A DNA stretch of 32,000 nucleotides from Candidatus Nitrosopumilus koreensis AR1. Lineage in GTDB: Archaea > Thermoproteota > Nitrososphaeria > Nitrososphaerales > Nitrosopumilaceae. Below the pieces are notes generated by a model. The model was not told the DNA's origin and ran no database searches. It was given only the letters and a program-made list of their open reading frames with translations. The DNA lies in assembly GCF_000299365.1 (NCBI RefSeq), contig NC_018655.1:960001-992000 (forward strand), read 5' to 3'. Every line of letters starts with the position of its first letter. Positions within the stretch are counted from its first letter, which is position 1. A program made the translations under genes and the position numbers. This document shows positions 1,509-29,259 of this stretch, piece after piece.

Positions 1509-2018
1509 TTATGGGGAGAGTAATTCCAGAATTTTTTGAACTGCTTCTTGAGGAGTATCTGCTCCAACTATTTTGATATTTTCTCGGTGATCAAGATATC
1601 CATCAATGTATGGATCAACTGAGCTATTCAAATTTCTGATTGCAACCATAGGTTTTTTGTGCATGTATGCAGCACAGGTTTCAGACAAAGTTCCAGAACC
1701 ACCACCTACAATTATCACACCATCAGCAGACAATGCATTAAGAAAATCACGAGCAAGTCCCATCCCAGTTGGAATTACAATATCACAGAACTCGTTTGCT
1801 TCTGAAGGATCATTTTGAGGTATAATTCCAACAGTCAAGCCATTTGCATCTTTAGCACCATGAGCTGCAGCAGTCATTACACCACCTAATCCCCCACAAA
1901 TTAAAACAGAACCAGATTTTGCAATTTCTACTCCTACCTCATATGCAATCTTCTCATGGTTAGGCAAGCATCCCTTGGTATTATTGCCAATAACTAAGAT
2001 CTGCCTTTTCTTTACCAT
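1509..2018 (-). CDS. LOG/TIGR00725-family Rossmann-fold nucleotide-binding protein
   Basis: Motifs GGLGGVMTAAAHGA and VGGGSGTLSE (PGGxGTxxE-like) are present. I place the start at the internal ATG (MVKKRQILVIG, nt 2018). The 30-aa extension in the ORF track is hydrophobic junk that overlaps the promoter region. Confidence 0.7.
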   Translation of the reverse strand: MVKKRQILVIGNNTKGCLPNHEKIAYEVGVEIAKSGSVLICGGLGGVMTAAAHGAKDANGLTVGIIPQNDPSEANEFCDIVIPTGMGLARDFLNALSADGVIIVGGGSGTLSETCAAYMHKKPMVAIRNLNSSVDPYIDGYLDHRENIKIVGADTPQEAVQKILELLSP

Positions 2019-2107
2019 ATTCCAAAATAGAAAAATGGTTTGAAATAGCTTCCGAGAGAAAAGGATATTAGTAAAAAATACTGTTGTATAGCATGGAAAG
2101 ACGTTCA

Positions 2108-2215
2108 ATGCCAGTATGTTTTACTGAAAAACAATACAAAATGATCGAAGAGTATGCTAAGAAAAATGGAATGCTAAATGCAAGCCAAGCTCTTGAGAAG
2201 ATTCTAAGCGAATAA
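2108..2215 (+). CDS. possible 35-aa ribbon-helix-helix-like microprotein
   Basis: ATG..TAA ORF not in the track: MPVCFTEKQYKMIEEYAKKNGMLNASQALEKILSE. It shows a strand-helix-helix pattern and is followed by T-runs. The call is weak because the ORF is so short. Confidence 0.3.
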   Translation: MPVCFTEKQYKMIEEYAKKNGMLNASQALEKILSE

Positions 2216-10174: not shown

Positions 10175-10567
10175 CTAAATCGTAGTAATTGTTATTTCAT
10201 CAAACAATTCTTCGGCTTTTTTGATAATTCTCTTGTCATCGGCATCAGGTTCTGCAGTAATTAAAACAAGATTCTCTCCAATAGGGACACTAATTATCAG
10301 TTGATTTTTTCTCCTTGAGGCAATATAGTCAATAGGGCCCAGAATGTCATCTAGTTCTTGCCTCATGTTAAAGTCAAGCTGCATCTGCATGTATAGCATC
10401 CTTAACCTCTCATCTGGAAGCAAGGGCGTTATTCCTTTCTTAAAACCTCCTGCAACTAGTCTTCCTAATTCGTTTATGACTCCAACATAACGCACCTTTT
10501 CTTCTTCAAATAATTCAGTACAGGCCTTATCCAATTTCTTAAGATCATCAGCTGAAAGTAGAGCCAT
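10175..10567 (-). CDS. small alpha/beta protein, possibly roadblock/LC7-like; paralog of 28879..29259
   Basis: 130 aa. It aligns by eye with the ORF at 28879..29259: VRYVGVINELGRLVAGG vs IRYIGILDKMGSLVFEK, and LVLITAEPDAD vs IVMITLEPNEN. The fold assignment is inference only. Confidence 0.5.
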   Translation of the reverse strand: MALLSADDLKKLDKACTELFEEEKVRYVGVINELGRLVAGGFKKGITPLLPDERLRMLYMQMQLDFNMRQELDDILGPIDYIASRRKNQLIISVPIGENLVLITAEPDADDKRIIKKAEELFDEITITTI

Positions 10568-12928: not shown

Positions 12929-13029
12929 AATCTAACGCAGAATGTGTAGTTAGATAATAGCTAAGTTACTAATTTTTTAGCTGCTTTACAAGCTGATTCT
13001 ATTAACACACAGAACATACATAGTTGTAG

Positions 13030-13215
13030 ATGAGAATGTACAGAAAAGAGCCTGATTACTTGAAAGAGTTTAGCACTGCGGTAGATGAAAACCACACCAT
13101 AGAACACCTAGAAGAATTCATGTCAGATATGGCAAGCGGTTTTCAAAGATGCGAGCACAAGTTTTCCCATAATGGTACCATTTCATGCATAAAATGTGGA
13201 AAAACTATGATGTAA
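13030..13215 (+). CDS. hypothetical small protein with C-terminal Cys/His cluster (61 aa)
   Basis: ATG ORF with C-x-H...C-x2-C near the C-terminus (QRCEHKF...SCIKCGK). Weak call. Confidence 0.3.
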   Translation: MRMYRKEPDYLKEFSTAVDENHTIEHLEEFMSDMASGFQRCEHKFSHNGTISCIKCGKTMM

Positions 13216-13294: not shown

Positions 13295-13390
13295 ATGATG
13301 AAAAATTATACTTGTTCTAGTTGTTTAGAGAAATTTTCCATTATAGAATTAGAATCTCATTTAAAAAAATACCATTTTTGGAGCAATTAG
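13295..13390 (+). CDS. 31-aa C2H2-like zinc-finger microprotein (paralog of 2331..2423)
   Basis: Sequence MMKNYTCSSCLEKFSIIELESHLKKYHFWSN. It has the same length class, Cys/His spacing and HFW tail as the ORF at 2331..2423. Confidence 0.45.
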   Translation: MMKNYTCSSCLEKFSIIELESHLKKYHFWSN

Positions 13391-14184
13391 AGAGCTTTCA
13401 TGTGTTTATACAGTGCATAAATGATTAGCATAAATGCAGCAGACCAAAGAGAATTGATTGGATGGTTATGCGTAAAAGCCTCTATTGTTTCCAGATAATA
13501 ATAGATAGAGTCAGCTACAGTCCACAAAAATATTCCTAGTGCTAATAACAACCAAGTTTCTTTGAGAACAGAGTGACGAAAAACGCTTACACCTATAACT
13601 GCAAAAGCAAGAGTTACAGATATTCCAATAACAAAGATATTACTATAAGCCAGATCAAATAAAAGCTCATCATAAACTCCCCAAGCTTCATACGCAACTA
13701 CAGTAAAACTGCCAACTGCAACAATTGGAATGATGACAAGTGTGGCTTTCATAGCCGTACTCCATTGGGGTTTGAAGAATCTGGTGTTAAGTGAAAGATG
13801 CAAGATTGCAAAAACATAGTTTGCAGCAAAACCTGCATCAAATGGAGATGGCCAAGGATCAATGTCTAAAACAAACTGTTGATAGTAATACCCAAGGTCA
13901 CCAATAAACCAAGCAAAGAATCCCAATCCCAAAAACAGATATGCTTTTCCAAGCATTTCAGAGCCATGATATTTTTTGGCAACTACGATTGAAAATGCAC
14001 CAACTGTGGCAATGCCAGCCATGTAAAATCCATCTTTTATATCAAAATGAGTGCCCTCAAAAAAGTAAAAACCATAAAGAAGATCAACTATAGTAAGCCC
14101 TACAATTAACGCAATAATCTTGTAATTTATCCCGTGAGAAGTTTGCCCAATAGGGCTGCTGGCAGTTACTCCTTCATTACTCAT
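13387..14184 (-). CDS. integral membrane protein, about 7 TM, with internal duplication
   Basis: 265 aa and very hydrophobic. The motif LGLGFFAWFIGDLGYYY recurs as LALGIFLWTVADSIYYY. It lies 78 nt downstream of the 926-aa gene on the same strand. Confidence 0.6.
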   Translation of the reverse strand: MSNEGVTASSPIGQTSHGINYKIIALIVGLTIVDLLYGFYFFEGTHFDIKDGFYMAGIATVGAFSIVVAKKYHGSEMLGKAYLFLGLGFFAWFIGDLGYYYQQFVLDIDPWPSPFDAGFAANYVFAILHLSLNTRFFKPQWSTAMKATLVIIPIVAVGSFTVVAYEAWGVYDELLFDLAYSNIFVIGISVTLAFAVIGVSVFRHSVLKETWLLLALGIFLWTVADSIYYYLETIEAFTHNHPINSLWSAAFMLIIYALYKHMKAL

Positions 14185-14262: not shown

Positions 14263-17043
14263 TTATTCAACGTCAGCAAATTTGGACCAGAAATTTTTCC
14301 AACCATAAGAATAATCAACAGCAGCTCTTGTAGCCAAAGCTATTAACAACATTAAGAATATAGACAAATTTTGTGTCCACCCATCATCAACATACGCAGG
14401 AGACACATATGCATAATGTATTGAAAATATCCATGCAAACATACCTATTATAATATCAAAAACTATCCATTCCAAATAAACAGGAGCATCCCTAACTTCA
14501 TCCCTCATATCATTCCAAGTAAAGATTGTTACCCATGCAGCATCAATGAAAACTAAAACCATCAAAAAACTAAGAAATGCATTAACATCACCTATACTTG
14601 CTGCTAAAAAGTAAACAACAATAGCTTGTAGTAAAATTACTAGAAAATTTACAAAGATTAATGGTTTATTTCCTAAAGTTAATTCCTCAGATGCATTTGC
14701 CGATAAAAAAATAACCCCTTGATGATAAAATAGTATACCAAGAGGAAAAAAACATAATAAAAGAATTATCATGTATTGATAATCTATAAAATTAGATTTT
14801 AGGAAATAATAGTCTGCATGATAGCAGTCATCAGCACCAAATTCCCCACAGTTTGCAGGTAATTGTAATGTATCAATAACAATATCCAAAGAATTTGTTA
14901 ACGCAACTGAAATTATTAGTGCAAAAACTACTCCAAAGAATACAATAGCTTTACCAGCTTTTACACCTTCAGGAAATCCAAATGATTTCACTATGCCGTG
15001 AACTGCACGAATTGTTCTATTTTTGTTCCATGCAACTTCAGTAGGATCTGGTTGAGGTTCTTTTTTCAACCAACTTTTGAATATTTTGTTGTAGTTTTTA
15101 TTTAATTTTTCAGAAATTGGTTCATCAGCTACTTCTATACCAGCATGCCTGTCTTTGTCCTTTTTACCATCCTCTTTCCATTTATAATAAATCGATCCCA
15201 TTGCCCTCCAATCAGAAGTATCCCATTCATTACGATCAATAAGCTTACATTGAATATTGTTAATTTTTTCACGTATCTCTTCATTAGAGTCCACAGTACA
15301 TTCAGGTACGATATCATCAAGATTCACATCAAAATCATTTTCGTCACTAGTCTTAGTACCAAACAATTTGTGCTCTATAGTTTCTATAGAATCAGTTACA
15401 ATAGATTTCAACTTCATTGCATCAACGTTTTTTTCTTGTAGTTCATTTGTACCACTAGTCTTAGTACCAAACAATTTGTGCCCTATAGTTTCTATAGAAT
15501 CAGTTACAATAGATTTCAACTTCATTGCATCAACGTTTTTTTCTTGTAGTTCATTTGTACCACCTGCATAGGGTACAGATAATTTGTTTTCGATAGTTTC
15601 TATAACACCTATTATTGTGGACTCTAAATCAATTCCACCAACATCTTTTTGTTGGGAGTCTTTTTTGACTCTAATTTTTTCAGTGGTGTGTAATTTTGCA
15701 TCTGCCAGAAGCCATCTAGTTGTTGCTTTTTCCAGACCACGTCTAAAATTTATCATCACAGCATAATATGCAACATCATTCTGAATTTTTCGTAGCAATA
15801 TTTTCTTTAATTCTTGAATTTTTTTTCCATCTTCAATGAAAATAGTCAATTCATTTAAAATTGCATCCAAGACTGTTTGATTATTTTCTAAATTCTTAAT
15901 AGACAATAAATTATTTCTAGAACTAAGTTTTCGTATTCGAAGTTTGGTATTTGTTAGTTTGGATTCAGTATCTTTTAATTCCGAAGATTTTAGCTTTTCT
16001 GAATTTGTTTTTAAAGTGTCTAAATCTTCCCCCATTTTTATTTTTATTTTATAATTCTTATCATATTCATTTGATTTATCTTCACGTTCTTTAGTTATTT
16101 TTTTTATTTTTTCATCAATTATTGTTTTTATAGCATCCAAATAATTTTCAGGAGTACTAGTTTTTTTAAATTCATTTTTTAATTTTTCTAAGATAAACAT
16201 TTTTTTCTTCAATACAACAATTTGATCATTGATTTCCTTCAATTCTTTGGTTTTTTTTATTAATTCAACTTTCTTTTCCCCTATATCATTATCAAGATCT
16301 TTGATGTTTTTAGGTTTTATTTTATCCAATTTTTTTTGTAATGTTATAAGATATTTTTCTTTAGCACTCAATTCATTTTGTATTTGTGTCTTAGTCATCT
16401 CCAATTCTTTTTTGATTTCAGAATTACTCATGTCAGGAACTAATTCAGGATTTGCAAAAAGTTCTAAACTACGATCCTTTTTTGGAATGAATTCACCTTC
16501 GTCATCTTTTTCAAAAACAATGCCTCCATCATTTTTATTTTCATAATTAATTTCATTCCATTCAGGCCATAATTTTTCAAATCCAATTTCATAAAACCGG
16601 TAGTCTATTTTTTCAGTAAATACATTATACCATTTTTCATTTTCATCAATAGGTTTCCAATCCAATAGGTCTTCTGTTTTTATCTCAAGTGCTTTTCCAT
16701 CATTAGATTCTTTTTTAAATGTACGACGATAAAATTCCTTTAATTTAGAATAGTCATTCTTGTCATCAACAAATTGAAAAAATTTTAAATCAAATTCAAG
16801 TTTATCATTTGCTAATTTTTCCAACCACGGGGTATATGAGGTATAGCCTTTTCGTGATAAATAGACAGTTAAAATCAAAAGAGACATCGCTATACCAAAT
16901 GCAATGTATATCCTATCTTGATATTCAAATGACTTTAGGTGTTTGTAAATACTTTCTTCTAACTCTATTCCTTCTAGTTCAGGATTTTTTTTTACAATTA
17001 GTTCTTTTGTGGTAACATATTCATGATTAGAAAATTCTAGCAA
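14263..17043 (-). CDS. giant coiled-coil membrane protein (926 aa) with 36-aa tandem repeats
   Basis: Long uninterrupted ORF that starts at TTG. It has one N-terminal TM (IYIAFGIAMSLLILTVYL), about 400 aa of K/E/N-rich heptad-like sequence, two 36-aa repeats, and a C-terminal region with at least 6 hydrophobic helices. No recognisable enzymatic motif. Confidence 0.7.
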   Translation of the reverse strand: MLEFSNHEYVTTKELIVKKNPELEGIELEESIYKHLKSFEYQDRIYIAFGIAMSLLILTVYLSRKGYTSYTPWLEKLANDKLEFDLKFFQFVDDKNDYSKLKEFYRRTFKKESNDGKALEIKTEDLLDWKPIDENEKWYNVFTEKIDYRFYEIGFEKLWPEWNEINYENKNDGGIVFEKDDEGEFIPKKDRSLELFANPELVPDMSNSEIKKELEMTKTQIQNELSAKEKYLITLQKKLDKIKPKNIKDLDNDIGEKKVELIKKTKELKEINDQIVVLKKKMFILEKLKNEFKKTSTPENYLDAIKTIIDEKIKKITKEREDKSNEYDKNYKIKIKMGEDLDTLKTNSEKLKSSELKDTESKLTNTKLRIRKLSSRNNLLSIKNLENNQTVLDAILNELTIFIEDGKKIQELKKILLRKIQNDVAYYAVMINFRRGLEKATTRWLLADAKLHTTEKIRVKKDSQQKDVGGIDLESTIIGVIETIENKLSVPYAGGTNELQEKNVDAMKLKSIVTDSIETIGHKLFGTKTSGTNELQEKNVDAMKLKSIVTDSIETIEHKLFGTKTSDENDFDVNLDDIVPECTVDSNEEIREKINNIQCKLIDRNEWDTSDWRAMGSIYYKWKEDGKKDKDRHAGIEVADEPISEKLNKNYNKIFKSWLKKEPQPDPTEVAWNKNRTIRAVHGIVKSFGFPEGVKAGKAIVFFGVVFALIISVALTNSLDIVIDTLQLPANCGEFGADDCYHADYYFLKSNFIDYQYMIILLLCFFPLGILFYHQGVIFLSANASEELTLGNKPLIFVNFLVILLQAIVVYFLAASIGDVNAFLSFLMVLVFIDAAWVTIFTWNDMRDEVRDAPVYLEWIVFDIIIGMFAWIFSIHYAYVSPAYVDDGWTQNLSIFLMLLIALATRAAVDYSYGWKNFWSKFADVE
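15345..15560. repeat. 2 x 108-nt near-perfect tandem repeat inside the 926-aa gene
   Basis: Copy 1 (15345-15452) and copy 2 (15453-15560) differ at one position (tgtgctctatag vs tgtgccctatag). They encode GTNELQEKNVDAMKLKSIVTDSIETI(G/E)HKLFGTKTS. A degenerate partial copy follows at about 15575-15625. Confidence 0.95.
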
Positions 17044-17242: not shown

Positions 17243-18055
17243 TCAAGACAGTTTTGCCTCTTGAAATGGCACACTTTGTTCCCAGCACCATTCAAAATAG
17301 TCACAACACCATTCACGAAACTTTGGATCGGCACTATAAAACATCTGACTCAGATCAATGGTTCCCTCAAGATCAGAGAAAAATACGGCTGCCTCCTTAT
17401 CAGTAACTAAAACAGCAATATCGACATCCTTTTTGATTTTCCTCTTCAAGTTTCCGCTCTGGATGTATTTTTGAAATCCTTTTTCTTCAAAGATTTTTTT
17501 CCGCTCTTCAGGAATTATGACATCGTCTGAAAAAATTGAATGGATTTCAATTTTATTTTTTAATTGCTTTGAAATGACTTCTACAACATCTCCAGAGTAT
17601 GGAACTTCAGACAAAATATTGTAGATGTATTTTTTAGCGTTTTCATGAATTTGACGCCACTTTTCCAAAGTTTTCACATATCCTTTGATATTTTTTTTAT
17701 TTGTTAATGCACCTAGTCTTTGAATAAATTTTGCATCGAGATTTCCCAATGTGTGCTTGCTAAAATATGATTTATTGTCAGAAAAGAAAGTGATAGAAGG
17801 AATTTGAACTAGTACTGCCTTACCATATGTAGTTAAGCTGTAATTTCCATCAGTGTCTTTTTCGATTAATCCAGATTTAGACAGTCGGGACACATTTCTA
17901 TGAATTTCAGGTTTAGTTGCATCCAAAATCTCTGCAAGTTTAGAATTGTTGAGTTTATTTTTTGATAGTTTTTGCAAAATATCTAGTCGCTGTTCACTAG
18001 CTAATTCAAACAATTCAGAAGATATACTTTCAGAATCCCAACTCACAAAAAGCAT
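17243..18055 (-). CDS. winged-HTH (ArsR-like) transcriptional regulator with DUF1724-type C-terminal domain
   Basis: 270 aa. The N-terminal part LFELASEQRLDILQKL...LAEILDATKPEIHRNVSRLSKSGLIEKD is an ArsR-type wHTH. The C-terminal region is shared with the paralog at 27945..28742. Confidence 0.7.
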   Translation of the reverse strand: MLFVSWDSESISSELFELASEQRLDILQKLSKNKLNNSKLAEILDATKPEIHRNVSRLSKSGLIEKDTDGNYSLTTYGKAVLVQIPSITFFSDNKSYFSKHTLGNLDAKFIQRLGALTNKKNIKGYVKTLEKWRQIHENAKKYIYNILSEVPYSGDVVEVISKQLKNKIEIHSIFSDDVIIPEERKKIFEEKGFQKYIQSGNLKRKIKKDVDIAVLVTDKEAAVFFSDLEGTIDLSQMFYSADPKFREWCCDYFEWCWEQSVPFQEAKLS

Positions 18056-18089
18056 GAAAAAAGATCAGACAAAAAGGTTACTATGACAA

Positions 18090-18215
18090 TTAAGATTCAG
18101 GCCAATTGCCATTGCATTCTAAGCACATTCCACGCATTCCAGAATAACGTACTTCATCGACAATTATTGCTGGTTTATGACAAGCTAAACAAATAGTATA
18201 ACACATTATTCGCAT
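18090..18215 (-). CDS. 41-aa zinc-ribbon microprotein upstream of the regulator
   Basis: ATG..TAA ORF not in the track: MRIMCYTICLACHKPAIIVDEVRYSGMRGMCLECNGNWPES, with two CxxC pairs. It ends 34 nt upstream of the regulator start on the same strand. Confidence 0.4.
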   Translation of the reverse strand: MRIMCYTICLACHKPAIIVDEVRYSGMRGMCLECNGNWPES

Positions 18216-18248
18216 ATTAGTAAAATAGGACTATTTTCATAAATATTT

Positions 18249-18270
18249 CAATTAACAAAAATGTTAATTG
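18249..18270. promoter_or_regulatory. perfect 9-4-9 inverted repeat (CAATTAACA-aaaa-TGTTAATTG), candidate operator
   Basis: It sits in the divergent intergenic region between the Zn-ribbon/regulator operon and the cyclase gene. It lies directly distal to an AAATATTT TATA-like element, 33 nt from the ATG at 18215. A related core occurs upstream of the paralogous regulator. Confidence 0.4.
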
Positions 18271-18393
18271 TTACAATAGTAGCTAATGAAAATTAATCTA
18301 TATTACGCACAAAACCATCAAAAATTACAAAATTATACAAAAAAGTTCCCATAACATTAAAAATTATCTTCATAAAATAAGAAATGAATTGTA

Positions 18394-19569
18394 TTGAGTA
18401 ATGAGGCACCTGAAGATTTAATCTACGCAGCATTTTTTTTCACAGACATTGTAGGATTGTCAAATCCCATTATTTCAACAGAGACCCAAAAAATGAAAAT
18501 TGAAAAATTAAATTCAATGATCTATGACTGTAAAACTTTTGCATTAACCAAAAAAAATGAATTATTTATTTTACCAACTGGAGATGGGATGCTACTTGCG
18601 TTCAAAGATGGATTAGAGCAACCCGTCTCTCTTGCAGTAGAACTGCATCAGAAACTCAGAAGATATAACGAACAAGCATATGATACTGAAAAGATCTTTA
18701 TTAGAATTGGGTGCAATGTAGGCCATATTTTTATTGTAAAAGACATGTTTGGAAATGTCAATTTATGGGGGCCAGGTGCAGTTCTTGCAAGAAGAGTGAT
18801 GGATCTGGGGGAATCTAACCACATTTTAATTCCTTCAAGCATGGTCAATGATCTCTTTGAATTATCAAATGACTATGAGAAAATGATTTTTCCCATTCAA
18901 AATTTTACAATAAAACACGGAGAAGATCTTTTAGTTTACTCTATACACGGTTCAGAATTTGGAAATAGTGAACCTCCAAAAAAAACTAATCAAATTACTA
19001 AAACACAATCAAATCATAGTTCCACATGTCAAAAGATTATTTTTAATATAAAAATAAAAGATTCAGAAAAAAACAATTTAGCATTTGAAAGGATTTATGA
19101 TTTTGTAAATAATTCAACAGAACCGATATATGATATTCAAATTGAAATTATGTCACATACAAAACTAGACATTGGTGATTTAAACATAAGAGCGTTTGAT
19201 GAAAACAAACAAGAATTAGAAATATCAAAAATTACATCTACTGATTTTTCCAAACAATTAACCATAAAACTAGCACGACCAGTCTTTAAAGGAAGTCAAG
19301 GACGCATAATCAGAGTAACATATGAAAAAAATGAACCAAGTAATTTCTTTGAACATAGATTTTTGATGGATACTGATAGTTTTGAATTAAATTTGATCAC
19401 ACCAAAAAATGTTTCAAACATACATCCAAAATTCTTTCTAATAGACAAAAACAATAAAAAAACTTGTCTAGAAGAAACACAAAAAACATCTAAAGGAATG
19501 TCATATGTTACTTCATGGCAAAAAAATGATAAAATATTTTTTGACGATATAATTAGAGTGGAATATTAG
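18394..19569 (+). CDS. class III nucleotidyl cyclase homology domain protein with unknown beta-rich C-terminal domain
   Basis: 391 aa with a TTG start. The N-terminal ~165 aa follow the cyclase pattern: FFFTDIVGLS (metal Asp 1), LPTGDGMLLAF (metal Asp 2), IRIGCNVGHI and WGPGAVLARR. The C-terminal ~200 aa have no recognisable motif. Confidence 0.6.
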   Translation: MSNEAPEDLIYAAFFFTDIVGLSNPIISTETQKMKIEKLNSMIYDCKTFALTKKNELFILPTGDGMLLAFKDGLEQPVSLAVELHQKLRRYNEQAYDTEKIFIRIGCNVGHIFIVKDMFGNVNLWGPGAVLARRVMDLGESNHILIPSSMVNDLFELSNDYEKMIFPIQNFTIKHGEDLLVYSIHGSEFGNSEPPKKTNQITKTQSNHSSTCQKIIFNIKIKDSEKNNLAFERIYDFVNNSTEPIYDIQIEIMSHTKLDIGDLNIRAFDENKQELEISKITSTDFSKQLTIKLARPVFKGSQGRIIRVTYEKNEPSNFFEHRFLMDTDSFELNLITPKNVSNIHPKFFLIDKNNKKTCLEETQKTSKGMSYVTSWQKNDKIFFDDIIRVEY

Positions 19570-19576
19570 ACGTACA

Positions 19577-20284
19577 CTACAACCCCAAAATCATTCGAAA
19601 TCCCTTGTTTTTAGACAATCTAGCAAAATCATGATCCACACGTAATTTTTCTTTGCAAACTAAATCATGTTTACATATATTTTCTAAAATTTCAAGACAT
19701 TTGGATTCATTTTCCAAAAATAATTCACATTTTGCCTGAGCATAAAGTGTTTTGAAATCATCATTTTTAACGTCTAATGCATGTGCAAAACAATCATTAG
19801 ATTCAACATATTTTTTCAGATGAAAAAAACACAATCCTTTGTTATACCAAAATTCATTATCCAGTTGTTTTTCATTAATAGCTAGATCGGCATATAACAG
19901 TGCTTTTTCAAACTTGTGAGCTTTTTTCAGTCGTTCTGCCTTTTTGTTACTTTGCAGATAGTTTTGATTTCTTTCTTCAGCTGCTTTGTTAAAACACTCT
20001 ATTGCTTCAGCATGGTGAGTTAATTGCATTAAAAGAAGTCCCTTTAAGAAAAAAGTTTCATAGCTTTTTTTGTGTACAGACAAATCTTTGTCAAGACAGT
20101 TCACGGCATCCTCATACTCCCCCAATTCACAGCAATGCACAGCTCGAGAATACCAAAAATTTTCAGATTCTTCTTCTTGTTTAATTTGAGTTGCTTTATT
20201 TGTCAGTTTCAGCGCCTCCTCGAATTTTTTATCCTTTTTTAATTTCTCAGCTTTTTTTGCATAAAATGAGGATATGTCATTCAT
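19577..20284 (-). CDS. tetratricopeptide-repeat (TPR) protein
   Basis: 235 aa with repeated W/F-Y-x-(K/R)-(A/G)-x5-(L/G)-x-Y-x-(E/D)-(A/S) units, e.g. FWYSRAVHCCELGEYEDAVNCLDK and FWYNKGLCFFHLKKYVESNDCFAHAL. Confidence 0.7.
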   Translation of the reverse strand: MNDISSFYAKKAEKLKKDKKFEEALKLTNKATQIKQEEESENFWYSRAVHCCELGEYEDAVNCLDKDLSVHKKSYETFFLKGLLLMQLTHHAEAIECFNKAAEERNQNYLQSNKKAERLKKAHKFEKALLYADLAINEKQLDNEFWYNKGLCFFHLKKYVESNDCFAHALDVKNDDFKTLYAQAKCELFLENESKCLEILENICKHDLVCKEKLRVDHDFARLSKNKGFRMILGL

Positions 20285-20354
20285 AATATCTCAATTATTT
20301 TATTCGTATTATGTTTTTTCAAATTTAGATTGTTAGTTGCACGAAACTCCATTT

Positions 20355-21080
20355 TTACCGATTTTTTAATTGAACCTTGTAAGCAGGGTAGGCAGACTTG
20401 AAGCCCACATTGTATCCACGGATTTGTTTGAAACTATATTTTTCTATTTTTTTTACAATCTCACGCAAATCTCCACCAATAACAAATTCATTATTTTGAG
20501 CAAGATGATTTATTTTTGTACACATGTTTACTGGAGGTCCTATCATATCAATTTCTACAGATTTGTTTGTATTCATGATTATAACACTGCCATAGTCCAT
20601 ACTTATCCTATAGTTTAAGGAAGGTAATTTTTTTAAAATTAATTCTCTAGAAATAATTTTTTGCGCCTTTGTCATTACCAAACCGCAATCAATAGATCTT
20701 CGCACATGTTCTAGATTATTTCCATTTTCAGACAGTGGGAAATAAAATAACAAACAATCGCCCACATTTTTAATTACTTTGCCATCAAACTTTCCCACAA
20801 TTACTGCCATTGAATTCAAAAAAGTTTCATAGTATTTCATAAGATTATCTCTAGATAATGATGCAGAAATTCTCGTTGAATTTACCATATCCACACAGCC
20901 CACACAGTATGCACGAGATTTTGTGGCAAATGCAACCAAATAATCTGAAATTCCCATAGGATCAGAATCAGTTTCTCGTAATGGATACTTTAGAATAGAA
21001 TAGGGAGGAGGTTCTAAATTTTGCACTACACCATCATTTGATAGTAATTCAGATAAATTTACACCTGCTTCCCATCTCAT
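20355..21080 (-). CDS. class III nucleotidyl (adenylyl-type) cyclase homology domain protein
   Basis: 241 aa. Motifs: CVGCVDMVNST (metal Asp 1), GKVIKNVGDCLLFYF (K-x-x-G-D, carrying the purine-specifying Lys position and metal Asp 2), YRISMDYGSV and MIGPPVNMCTKI (Asn present, Arg replaced by Lys). Confidence 0.65.
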   Translation of the reverse strand: MRWEAGVNLSELLSNDGVVQNLEPPPYSILKYPLRETDSDPMGISDYLVAFATKSRAYCVGCVDMVNSTRISASLSRDNLMKYYETFLNSMAVIVGKFDGKVIKNVGDCLLFYFPLSENGNNLEHVRRSIDCGLVMTKAQKIISRELILKKLPSLNYRISMDYGSVIIMNTNKSVEIDMIGPPVNMCTKINHLAQNNEFVIGGDLREIVKKIEKYSFKQIRGYNVGFKSAYPAYKVQLKNR

Positions 21081-21248
21081 GATTATATTACGTAAAAAAT
21101 TGTGTTATAGTTTGGTTAGCTCGTATGGTAATACTTTAGGAAAACAGCTACTTACATGATATATTTTCTAAAAATACTCAAAAAATAATGACATCAGGTA
21201 TGAGAATTATGAAAATATTAATTTATCATTAGTGTAACGTTATTAAAA

Positions 21249-24798: not shown

Positions 24799-25239
24799 AT
24801 GTCAATAAAAATCAAAAAAATTCTAGTTCCATATGATGCTACTCCCAGCAGTGAAAAAGCAGTAAAAAAGATATTACCTCTCATTGAAAAACATGATTCT
24901 AAAATTATATTTTTAACGTGTATTCATGACAAAGCAACATTTGGGTTTTTCAAAACAAAATCAGATAAAAGAGAAATTGAGCAGGAAAAAAAGAAAATGG
25001 AGCAATATCATGAACGCTTAAAAAAAGAAGCTGCAAAATTTGGGATTCCATCAAGTTCTAAAATTATCAAGAGCGACCTAGAATCAAGGTCAATCATAGA
25101 ATATGCAAGGGATCAGAATGTAGACCTCATAGTAATGAGCAAATCAAAAATGGGAACTCATGCTGAAAAATTATACTATAACAGCACAGTTGATGCAGTC
25201 TTTAATAAAACTCCGTGTCCATTATTGTACATTCCATAA
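24799..25239 (+). CDS. universal stress protein (UspA family)
   Basis: 146 aa. KKILVPYDATPSSEKA...DLIVMSKSKMG...STVDAVFNKTPCPLLYIP matches the USP pattern. Confidence 0.8.
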   Translation: MSIKIKKILVPYDATPSSEKAVKKILPLIEKHDSKIIFLTCIHDKATFGFFKTKSDKREIEQEKKKMEQYHERLKKEAAKFGIPSSSKIIKSDLESRSIIEYARDQNVDLIVMSKSKMGTHAEKLYYNSTVDAVFNKTPCPLLYIP

Positions 25240-27944: not shown

Positions 27945-28742
27945 TCAAGACGTTTTTGGATGGTTCCTGGAGATTGTTTTTGCCTTTTTCCAATAATGCT
28001 CAAAGAAATCCAGACACCAATCTTGAAAAGATGAGCTCTTACCATAAAACATATGTCGCAAATCAGGTTCGTCATTATTGGGAAAAACTATTGCAGCCTC
28101 TTTTTCGCTGACAATTAAGATAAATCCGGTGTTGTTTACCTCCTTTCGCAGAATTTTTCCATTTTGAATCAAATCATAATATCCAATTTTTTGCAAATGT
28201 CCATCTCTGTCAGAGTATTCTTCAAAATCACTACTGAAAATATGTCTATACTTTACGCCTTTTTTGACACGGCCAACCAAAACATCATCCAGTCCTGCAG
28301 GATATTCACTGGTGACATCGCATACAAATTCTGAAGCATTGTTTAAAATTTTCTTCCACGTGTCAATGACATTGGTGACCCCCCTAACATGAGTACACGT
28401 TTCAAGAACGCCTAATCTACGGCTAAATTTCTTGGGCAGAGAGTCAAGATCATGAGTTGAAAAATATTTTTGGTTCTTTGAAATAAAAAGTACCAAAGGC
28501 ATCTGGCTAAGTACAAGTCTTCCAATAGAAGTTATACGGAAATGTTCATCTGTACCCTTTTTTACAAATCCTGATTTTGACAACCTATCCATATTTCTGT
28601 GAATTTCTTGAGGAGTTAGTTCCATTTTTTTAGCAAGTACTGAGAGTCGATAGGGTTTTGAAGACAGATTATCTAAAATTTTCAAACGTTGTTCGCTTGC
28701 CAGTTCTAAAAATTGTGATGCCACAATTTCGAACTTATCCAT
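27945..28742 (-). CDS. winged-HTH (ArsR-like) regulator with DUF1724-type C-terminal domain (paralog of 17243..18055)
   Basis: 265 aa. FLELASEQRLKILDNL...EIHRNMDRLSKSGFVKK and the C-terminal EKEAAIVF...MFYGKSSSFQDWCLDFFEHYW align along the full length with 17243..18055. Confidence 0.7.
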   Translation of the reverse strand: MDKFEIVASQFLELASEQRLKILDNLSSKPYRLSVLAKKMELTPQEIHRNMDRLSKSGFVKKGTDEHFRITSIGRLVLSQMPLVLFISKNQKYFSTHDLDSLPKKFSRRLGVLETCTHVRGVTNVIDTWKKILNNASEFVCDVTSEYPAGLDDVLVGRVKKGVKYRHIFSSDFEEYSDRDGHLQKIGYYDLIQNGKILRKEVNNTGFILIVSEKEAAIVFPNNDEPDLRHMFYGKSSSFQDWCLDFFEHYWKKAKTISRNHPKTS

Positions 28743-28878: not shown

Positions 28879-29259
28879 ATGCATGCAAAAGTTTCTTCAA
28901 AATTACTTGATGATACATGTAACATATTGTTAGCTAATAAAAAAATTCGATACATTGGTATTCTGGATAAAATGGGTAGTTTAGTATTTGAAAAACAAAA
29001 AGATGGAGTAGACCTGTCGCTGCCAGACAGCAAATCACGTTCTTTATACATAAAGTCGGTATTAGAAATTTTGTTAAAGAAAGACTTTGATGAACAAATG
29101 GGCCTTTTGAAATACAATGTCAGTCACAGATCAAAAATAGATGTGATAACTATTCCCATCTTCAACAACATCGTGATGATTACTTTGGAACCAAACGAAA
29201 ATTGCGATTTAATTGCAAATAGCGCTATAATGATTTTTGAAAAAATATTTATGAAATAA
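28879..29259 (+). CDS. small alpha/beta protein, possibly roadblock/LC7-like (paralog of 10175..10567)
   Basis: 126 aa. It is divergently transcribed from the regulator at 27945..28742 and is similar by eye to 10175..10567. Confidence 0.5.
   Translation: MHAKVSSKLLDDTCNILLANKKIRYIGILDKMGSLVFEKQKDGVDLSLPDSKSRSLYIKSVLEILLKKDFDEQMGLLKYNVSHRSKIDVITIPIFNNIVMITLEPNENCDLIANSAIMIFEKIFMK

Follow-up and report, generated by a model that had tools for sequence, protein, structure and literature searches.

The 32,000-nucleotide stretch of Candidatus Nitrosopumilus koreensis AR1 analysed here (contig NC_018655.1, positions 960,001 to 992,000; hereafter the window, to which coordinates refer unless a related locus is named) contains a cluster of genes for two proteins with class III nucleotidyl cyclase homology, a tetratricopeptide repeat (TPR) protein and a putative transcriptional regulator. 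Open reading frames (ORFs), motifs and domains of the window were checked by translation, Pfam profile search, PADLOC, NCBIfam and Rfam. One cyclase-homology protein, here named CycB (20355..21080, minus strand, 241 aa), carries the motifs VDMVNST, IKNVGDCLLF and GPPVNMC, and the other, CycA (18394..19569, plus strand, 391 aa, TTG start), carries FTDIVG, LPTGDGMLLAF and LARR. Both match the Pfam family PF00211. Between them lies the gene of the cytosolic TPR protein (19577..20284, minus strand, 235 aa; TPR_2 52.6 bits, TPR_1 45.1 bits), which is convergent with the CycA gene, leaving a gap of 7 bp between the two stop codons. Divergent from CycA is a minus-strand operon, whose first gene encodes a 41-aa Zn-ribbon protein (18090..18215; CxxC...CxxC) and which further comprises the gene of a 270-aa regulator with a winged helix-turn-helix (wHTH) and a DUF1724 (FilR1_middle) domain (17243..18055; PF25213, PF08350). 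The divergent intergenic region holds a candidate operator composed of a palindrome and an AGCTAA element (18249..18286), and a second candidate operator with a position weight matrix (PWM) score of 14.9 is located upstream of CycB (21116..21151, minus strand). An earlier reading of this DNA, made from the sequence alone (the sequence-only reading), had described two cyclase-like proteins flanking a TPR protein, had listed the catalytic motifs of both and had noted a Zn-ribbon and wHTH/DUF1724 operon that is linked divergently to CycA across a palindrome-bearing region. The ORFs, their translations and the Pfam matches agree with it in all these points.

Two class III cyclase families and a TPR partner

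CycB is 100% identical to the protein annotated as 'adenylate cyclase' in Candidatus Nitrosopumilus koreensis AR1. The comparison with PF00211, which the sequence-only reading had suggested as a check, gave 35.4 bits for CycB and 23.6 bits for CycA, both above the gathering cut-off of 21.9. CycB consists of a stand-alone class III cyclase domain and an N-terminal extension of ~55 aa with an SDYLVAF motif, and the profile of a 27-sequence CycB family aligns with CyaB of Pseudomonas aeruginosa (3r5g) over the whole catalytic domain (E 3.8e-18). The metal-binding pair is Asp64 and Asp108, kept in 66 of the 69 aligned sequences, and the adenine-specifying pair is Lys104 and Asp178, which is invariant in the family alignment. 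Lys104, four residues ahead of the second metal Asp, was located through the CyaB alignment, and Asp178 was assigned from its sequence position, 7 residues before the ribose-orienting Asn185. The phosphate Arg is Arg158 in an R-I-x-x-x-x-G strand. Hence, the retention of both metal Asp, the Lys and the Asn, as read from the sequence earlier, is confirmed by the protein itself and by the 69-sequence alignment. What had been overlooked is that the canonical N-x-x-x-R pair is incomplete: Asn185 is kept, and the position of the transition-state Arg is occupied by Lys189, as it is by Lys in 66 of the 69 sequences. The catalytic string D-S-T-K-D-R-D-N-K is identical in 58 of these 69, the window protein included, although the alignment covers marine as well as soil lineages with 31-66% identity. 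The residues of this set are those expected of a functional enzyme of adenine-type specificity with a single substitution peculiar to the family, Lys for Arg, and the invariance of the remaining catalytic positions over such a range of identities is hard to explain without catalysis.

CycA is composed of a divergent cyclase-homology domain (residues ~1-195) and a beta-sandwich (residues ~205-391). In the AlphaFold2 (AF2) model with a predicted local distance difference test score (pLDDT) of 85, residues ~8-185 can be superposed on class III cyclases of known structure (Foldseek E 4.5e-9, target-normalised template modelling (TM) score 0.7-0.82). Asp18, Asp64, Arg104 and Arg134 are invariant among the orthologues. 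The Lys, Asp and Asn positions are substituted by Leu60, Asn123 and Val130, respectively, and among the orthologues they vary between Leu, Phe and Val, between Asn, Thr and Ile, and between Ile and Val. According to the family alignment, CycA has neither a substrate-specifying Lys/Asp (or Glu/Cys) pair nor the Asn. The earlier statement that both Asp and the Arg are kept, that Leu stands at the Lys position and that the Asn is lost therefore holds in the sequence and in the alignment. It also holds that the C-terminal half is beta-rich and free of recognisable motifs, since no Pfam family matches it and its model is all-beta. When modelled alone, this domain gives an all-beta sandwich with a pLDDT of 91 and a predicted TM score (pTM) of 0.87, and its closest folds are the N-terminal beta domain of M1 aminopeptidases and leukotriene A4 hydrolase (LTA4H) and ribophorin I, with a query-normalised TM score of 0.57-0.62 at ~10% identity. 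The fold is of a non-catalytic, scaffold type. An exhaustive HMMER search among 1.84 billion representatives found the domain in 40 clusters only. The longer matches (~320-500 aa) bear it C-terminally like CycA, and the remaining ones are short proteins of 84-280 aa, which are probably fragments, so that the beta-sandwich is essentially specific to the CycA family.

The two cyclases had been called quite different from each other, and indeed an hhalign comparison of the CycA and CycB family profiles yields no significant alignment, so that a recent duplication cannot be assumed. Homologues of each family number in the hundreds and come almost exclusively from Nitrosopumilaceae, which argues against either ORF being a chance product. 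Distant metagenomic relatives of CycA share the motifs LPTGDGML, RVMDxGxxxHILL and VKH and a GNxxxPxK tail. Their Lys position is likewise hydrophobic and their Asp position is taken by Asn, but the Asn-x-x-x-Arg pair is kept. On metagenome contigs, such domains are fused to TPR arrays, to NB-ARC-TPR or to DUF4062-AAA_16-TPR. From these sequence features, CycA appears as a member of a separate TPR/STAND-associated cyclase subfamily with an additional loss of the Asn. It shares its domain signature and the association with TPR with cyclase-STAND/TPR proteins (the cyclase homology domain (CHD) fusions CHD-NB-ARC-TPR and CHD-TPR in the metagenome stretches L119 and L120) and differs from them by the lost Asn of the G-x-x-V-N motif, by the lack of a STAND NTPase, by a TPR protein that is encoded in a separate, convergent gene and by the added beta-sandwich. 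We take the adenylyl cyclase-ATPase-HTH proteins of the Rv0386 type from Mycobacterium tuberculosis to be a further comparison of the cyclase-STAND/TPR kind. Rv0386, a fusion with ATPase and HTH, reportedly has Gln and Asn at the specificity positions and is nevertheless an active cyclase with relaxed specificity, and activity of CycA is therefore possible as well.

The TPR gene is confined to Nitrosopumilus-type loci, in contrast to those of Nitrosarchaeum and Nitrosotenuis, where CycA has an N-terminal helical extension of ~75 aa and no TPR gene is present. It lies tail-to-tail with CycA in nearly every Nitrosopumilus-type locus that has room downstream. That the TPR protein belongs with the cyclases, as proposed before, is thus supported for CycA, and it was also right that it forms a gene of its own; the Pfam search moreover shows no NTPase domain in CycA. 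Since CycA-type domains are fused to TPR in distant relatives, it can be assumed by the Rosetta-stone argument that CycA and the adjoining TPR protein work together, presumably through physical interaction.

The regulator operon and the TTAGCT motif

The wHTH regulator is of the Msr/FilR1 type, with both domains above their cut-offs (HVO_A0261_N, PF25213, 48.9 bits versus 35; FilR1_middle, PF08350, formerly DUF1724, 39.5 bits versus 27), and PF08350 matches 13 of the 14 family members. The highly conserved recognition-helix region contains the invariant residues Glu50, Arg53, Asn54 and Arg57, and His52 hardly varies. Compared with PDB sequences, the family profile finds matches for the ArsR-like wHTH region only and none for the DUF1724 half. 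Similarity to the TrmB effector domain was also considered and was dropped, as it occurs only in a second wHTH paralogue of the window and not among the top matches of the family. This paralogue (27945..28742, minus strand, 35% identity, weak PF08350/TrmB-like C-terminal matches) is divergent from a DUF6659 gene (28879..29259, plus strand), and another DUF6659 gene lies at 10175..10567 on the minus strand. The wHTH gene adjoins CycB or CycA in three genera, and the Zn-ribbon gene is located upstream of it in most loci in which the region is covered. No family match was found for the 41-aa Zn-ribbon protein, which has the pattern CxxC...RYxGxRGxCxxCxGNWPES, and its C-terminal RYxGxRGxCxxCxGNWPES is nearly invariant in the three genera.

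A repeated TTAGCT was first noticed upstream of the Zn-ribbon gene in related loci. In 886 kb of such loci, the exact motif TTAGCT-N14-TTAGCT occurs 21 times, compared to 0.15 expected sites (dinucleotide-Markov simulations, mean 0.15, maximum 2), and when spacers of 8-20 nt are searched, 21 of the 23 TTAGCT pairs have a spacer of 14 nt. All 21 exact sites are located upstream of the Zn-ribbon/wHTH operon, in the divergent intergenic region between CycA and CycB, or upstream of a paralogous CycB. Metagenome loci contain more exact sites at the same positions, some of these contigs being duplicates of genome loci, and PWM near-matches are found upstream of CycB in further loci. Three extra PWM matches near small or unannotated ORFs (L003 14060, L063 18652, L010 18603; the labels L001-L120 denote related genome or metagenome stretches and not window coordinates) could not be interpreted. 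In the N. koreensis clade, the motif takes the form TTAGCT-N14-TTA(G/T/A)CA-N4-AGCTAA and is present in the Zn-ribbon/CycA intergenic region as well as upstream of CycB. The perfect palindrome of the window, CAATTAACA-AAAA-TGTTAATTG at 18249..18270, holds TTAAC-N6-GTTAA. Together with AGCTAA at 18281..18286, the minus strand of the site reads TTAGCT-N13-TTAACA-N4-TGTTAA. The palindrome is the inner dyad of the motif, which is TTAAC-N6-GTTAA here and TTAGC-N6-GCTAA in six close relatives. As both arms have changed with the symmetry being kept, we argue that the dyad is functional. The palindrome between operon and CycA that had been reported before is present and part of a conserved candidate operator. 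In the relatives, the outer half-site abuts the probable TATA box of CycA (AGCTAACATTAAAAAT). At the CycB site, the minus strand reads GTAGCT-N14-TTACCA-N4-AGCTAA, and the aligned block, (A/G)TAGCT-N14-TTAACA-N4-AGCTAAC, is conserved in 7 related loci. A conserved recognition helix in the wHTH regulator would be matched by a conserved half-site in the DNA. The best PWM score in the window (21.1) belongs to a candidate third operator, ATAGCT-N14-TTAGCT at 12955..12983 on the plus strand, ~45 nt upstream of a 61-aa Cys/His-rich ORF (13030..13215). This ORF is followed by one of 31 aa with a CxxC...HxxxxH pattern (13295..13390), and the two could be extra members of the regulon or unannotated small zinc-finger proteins.

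Conserved units, sensory context and genomic setting

The composition of the cluster was followed with a CycB profile scan of one genome per species, which gave 66 loci whose six-frame ORFs were searched with the window proteins, and with a reciprocal CycA profile scan of metagenomes. In Nitrosopumilus, Nitrosarchaeum and Nitrosotenuis, only a few kb separate CycB from the Zn-ribbon/wHTH operon and from CycA, with gene order and orientation varying by clade (wHTH-Znr / CycA> <TPR <CycB in the window, CycB> <wHTH-Znr / CycA> <TPR in L009). Paralogous pairs of CycB and wHTH, most of them with the Zn-ribbon gene, occur without CycA in L001 (a second pair), L003, L025, L026 and L039. Conversely, CycA is followed tail-to-tail by the TPR gene in nearly all metagenome contigs that are long enough, usually with a gene for a membrane protein, TM265, next to it. 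CycB, wHTH and Zn-ribbon genes are present in most of the longer CycA contigs, and units of CycA, TPR and TM265 without CycB within 6-7 kb were found in L085, L094, L099/L100 and L102. The conserved units are thus CycB with Zn-ribbon and wHTH on the one hand and CycA with TPR, and in part TM265, on the other, which are usually juxtaposed. The clustering of cyclases, TPR protein and regulator in related genomes, proposed as a test by the sequence-only reading, is therefore real, but the genome and metagenome scans replace its triad of cyclase, TPR and cyclase as the functional unit by two sub-modules.

TM265 is a polytopic membrane protein of 265 aa (13387..14184, minus strand) and adjoins the CycA-TPR unit in most Nitrosopumilus loci. 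It shares homology with the membrane domain at the N-terminus of histidine kinases that are encoded near the cluster in Nitrosarchaeum (phmmer 1e-12 to 1e-17 against ORFs of ~600 aa with HisKA and HATPase_c). Between TM265 and the wHTH gene lies the gene of a 926-aa coiled-coil protein with C-terminal transmembrane segments and without Pfam match (14263..17043, minus strand). It is co-directional with and downstream of the wHTH gene and is found only in the closest relatives, so that it is no more than tentatively assigned to the module. In L006, its homologue comes immediately after the wHTH gene. Within this gene, a 108-bp tandem repeat (15345..15604, 2.0-2.4 copies, 99% identity) duplicates a 36-aa segment of the protein, and the same gene contains the stretch of lowest GC content in the window. 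PADLOC and NCBIfam searches with CycA, the TPR protein, the 926-aa protein and TM265 gave nothing beyond generic TPR matches.

A sensory context is provided by the soil relatives. The CycB orthologues of Nitrososphaeraceae are fused to a C-terminal receiver domain, and in both soil loci examined (L028, L050) a gene for a MASE3-HisKA-HATPase kinase follows the cyclase-receiver gene, L028 also having a stand-alone receiver nearby. Receiver fusions and adjoining histidine kinases point to sensory signalling and not to defence. The earlier caution that neither a sensory nor a defence role could be claimed is therefore no longer appropriate for the sensory role, which is supported by the fusions, the kinases and the vertical conservation of the family. 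In L050, a calcineurin-like metallophosphoesterase (PF00149; 15956..16954) is encoded between two cyclase-receiver genes, with a DDE transposase nearby. The PF00149 family includes cAMP phosphodiesterases of the CpdA type.

In the window, a fatty-acid desaturase and a TPP-dependent enzyme adjoin the cluster according to Pfam, and EF-1alpha, ribosomal protein S10, an archaeal FBPase, DNA ligase and tRNA-intron endonuclease are encoded 8-15 kb away from it. The cluster is chromosomal and not a recognisable mobile element or defence island, and Rfam detects no RNA family in the window. It does lie in an AT-rich stretch (27-32% GC), as stated before, but not in the most AT-rich one, since the window minimum of 25% falls into the gene of the 926-aa protein (16-17 kb). 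Further away, the window encodes an SLOG cluster-4 (LOG-like, nucleotide-binding) protein (1509..2108, minus strand) and a universal stress protein (24799..25239, plus strand); both families include nucleotide-binding members, and neither gene is linked to the cluster in other genomes. In Nitrosarchaeum limnium SFB1 (L003/L004, 1..13210), a paralogous set of CycB, wHTH and Zn-ribbon is located among genes for caspase (Peptidase_C14), CHAT and TPR-caspase proteins, surroundings which are typical of conflict or programmed-death systems. Two Nitrosopumilus genomes show truncated versions of the region: in L005 (10704..11651) a truncated TPR gene abuts a truncated TM265 gene, and in L064 (9998..10975) CycB runs on in frame into TM265 after its first ~100 codons. 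The shared deletion end-points suggest that the region is prone to recombination.

A candidate cyclic-nucleotide signalling module

We consider it about an even chance, judging from sequence and gene context, that the cluster is a sensory cyclic-nucleotide module in which CycB would make cAMP, the wHTH regulator would exert control through the TTAGCT motif and CycA with the TPR protein would form a weakened or non-canonical branch. Ammonia-oxidising archaea would then possess a chromosomal cluster for signal transduction that is inherited vertically and is composed of two sub-modules and one cis-element. Most likely, CycB acts as a homodimeric adenylyl cyclase of class III that forms 3',5'-cAMP and has a family-specific Lys at the position of the transition-state Arg. 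The orthologues in soil relatives would be controlled by phosphorylation via the fused receiver. The CycB of Nitrosopumilaceae lacks this receiver and is paired with the Zn-ribbon protein and the wHTH-DUF1724 factor. This factor may bind TTAGCT-N14-TTAGCT (in the N. koreensis clade TTAGCT-N14-TTAnCA-N4-AGCTAA) upstream of its own operon, in most Nitrosopumilus loci within a divergent intergenic region of ~100 bp shared with CycA. Further binding would be expected upstream of CycB and, in the other genera, between the divergent CycA and CycB genes. As the motif precedes the regulator operon and the cyclases, regulator and cyclases would form a local feedback regulon, in which we infer the direction of regulation. 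CycA and the TPR protein, perhaps with TM265, probably constitute a sensor-regulated weak or non-canonical cyclase or a nucleotide-binding regulator.

Several observations weigh against this proposal. The transition-state Arg is normally a strong contributor to class III cyclase catalysis, and CycB has Lys189 at this place. None of the neighbourhoods was found to encode a cyclic-nucleotide receptor with a cyclic-nucleotide-binding domain (CNBD) or a GAF domain. It is from the co-localisation of gene and motif that we infer binding by the wHTH protein, and in N. koreensis itself the operators have diverged, the CycB site having three mismatches. Moreover, operator and CycA promoter are kept apart by an insertion of ~70 bp (18287..18360), which is absent in six relatives and through which CycA may have escaped control by the regulator in this strain. 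Finally, L005 and L064 carry deletions across the cluster, which is therefore dispensable, and the AT-rich, rearranged region would also fit a flexible or accessory island.

Other explanations of the cluster have been weighed against the same data. The two cyclases could be an obligate heterodimer of the C1/C2 type, in which CycA gives the metal Asp pair and CycB the base and ribose residues, resulting in one active and one degenerate, regulatory site. As in the mammalian C1/C2 pair, two divergent cyclase domains are encoded together, one of them, CycA, with a degenerate substrate-binding half; CycA keeps Asp18 and Asp64 and is without the Lys and Asn that CycB has, and in most loci the genes are neighbours sharing an operator. 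However, CycB is not C2-like, as it keeps its own metal Asp pair in nearly all homologues, and with the complete set of metal Asp, Lys, Asp and Asn a CycB homodimer can form full sites, so that nothing forces a heterodimer. Mixed sites would not be canonical either, since CycA retains the Arg that CycB lacks. The genes are convergent and separated or divergent and never co-transcribed, the relatives of CycA act within single STAND/TPR polypeptides, and each cyclase is found alone, CycB in the paralogous pairs listed above and in the receiver fusions, CycA in the units with TPR and TM265 that have no CycB within 6-7 kb. The asymmetric pair drawn from the sequence earlier thus lacks the complementary loss it implies, and we regard an obligate heterodimer as very unlikely. 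A loss of the second messenger altogether would be a different solution: CycA, and possibly CycB, might be pseudo-enzymes that act as nucleotide-binding regulators in a locally regulated operon set. All CycA orthologues lack the Lys, Asp and Asn, the specificity position varies between Asn, Thr and Ile, CycB has no canonical Arg, and neither a receptor nor a phosphodiesterase was found in the marine loci examined. On the other hand, CycA shows no variation at its two metal Asp and at two Arg, the other catalytic residues of CycB do not vary across the family, and the L050 metallophosphoesterase beside the CycB-receiver gene belongs to a family including CpdA. Pseudo-enzyme status is possible mainly for CycA, and for the cluster as a whole we hold this explanation to be distinctly unlikely.

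The least likely of the explanations considered is a Pycsar-like or other cyclic-nucleotide defence against viruses, with an unrecognised effector such as the TPR protein, the 926-aa protein or TM265. Like PycC, CycB is a small stand-alone class III domain, and it matches the PADLOC PycC model PDLC02370 better than Pfam (54.8 bits, E 2.3e-15); CycA matches none of the PADLOC PycC profiles. The region is AT-rich, with inversions and, in some genomes, deletions, STAND/TPR proteins of a sort that is common in conflict systems contain CycA-type domains, and the CycB-wHTH pair of Nitrosarchaeum limnium sits among caspase and CHAT genes. Against a defence function speaks that no CNBD-, TIR- or pore-type effector lies beside the cyclase, with no PADLOC effector and no PF00027 in the neighbourhood tables; the sequence-only reading had likewise seen no CNBD, TIR or nuclease effector, and Pfam and PADLOC find none in the neighbourhood. 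The family is distributed vertically and not sporadically, over three genera and Nitrososphaeraceae, and keeps strict synteny with the desaturase and other housekeeping genes; its orthologues are wired to two-component systems, and a dedicated transcription factor with an operator is atypical of abortive-infection systems. A scan of viral contigs with the CycB family, the only family scanned, found no relative. Furthermore, the Lys/Asp pair of CycB is of the purine type, unlike in the characterised PycC enzymes, which differ at the position four residues before the second metal Asp; as specificity residues, EaPycC uses Phe100, Arg142 and Gln144, and BcPycC Tyr50, Asp94 and Arg97 (PMC11224242). 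The pyrimidine specificity once suggested is therefore not supported for CycB, which has the adenine-type Lys104 and Asp178.

A sensory module built around an adenylyl cyclase can also be compared with systems of known function. With the bacterial homodimeric class III cyclases CyaB of P. aeruginosa (3r5g) and CyaC of Spirulina (1wc1), CycB shares the metal Asp, the Lys, the phosphate Arg and the Asn. It differs from both by the Lys for Arg in nearly every member, by Asp instead of Thr at the second specificity position, by its archaeal origin, by the N-terminal extension and by the absence of a fused sensor in marine ammonia-oxidising archaea. The wHTH regulator has the same architecture of wHTH and DUF1724/PF08350 as the Msr/FilR1 regulators. 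DUF1724 is called uncharacterised in the papers on FilR1 and on the Methanosarcina Msr regulators, whose genes adjoin those of signalling enzymes; MsrC and MsrX of Methanosarcina and FilR1 of Methanothrix are likewise beside or fused to a signalling enzyme or domain. In the present cluster, the partner is a cyclase and not a kinase or receiver, a Zn-ribbon gene leads the operon and an operator can be proposed. It is conceivable, although rather unlikely, that the wHTH-DUF1724 protein, together with the Zn-ribbon protein, is itself the receptor of the nucleotide made by CycB or CycA, comparable in function to CRP but with a ligand domain unrelated to that of CRP, and with feedback via the operators. 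If true, archaea would have their first defined transcription circuit that responds to a cyclic mononucleotide, and DUF1724 would have a function.

In the literature found, thaumarchaeal class III cyclases appear only as COG2114 counts (PMC9289680), and neither the cluster nor the CycA architecture nor the operator was found described in full-text literature searches. The cyclases as such are of a known kind; the novelty lies in how the partners are combined, in the Lys-for-Arg family, in the architecture of CycA and in the operator. Detection of cAMP in archaea goes back decades, and to our knowledge no archaeal circuit of cyclase, receptor and output has been defined. The cluster is a compact, conserved and experimentally tractable candidate for cyclic-nucleotide signalling in globally abundant ammonia oxidisers, and its candidate parts are a probably active cyclase with an unusual Lys, a degenerate second cyclase with its TPR protein, a dedicated regulator and a sharply defined candidate operator. 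It would furthermore link marine and soil lineages, with the same cyclase connected to a transcription factor in the former and to a two-component phosphorelay in the latter, and it hints at what the uncharacterised DUF1724 domain may do. It may therefore serve as a testable entry into the almost unstudied cyclic-nucleotide signalling of archaea.

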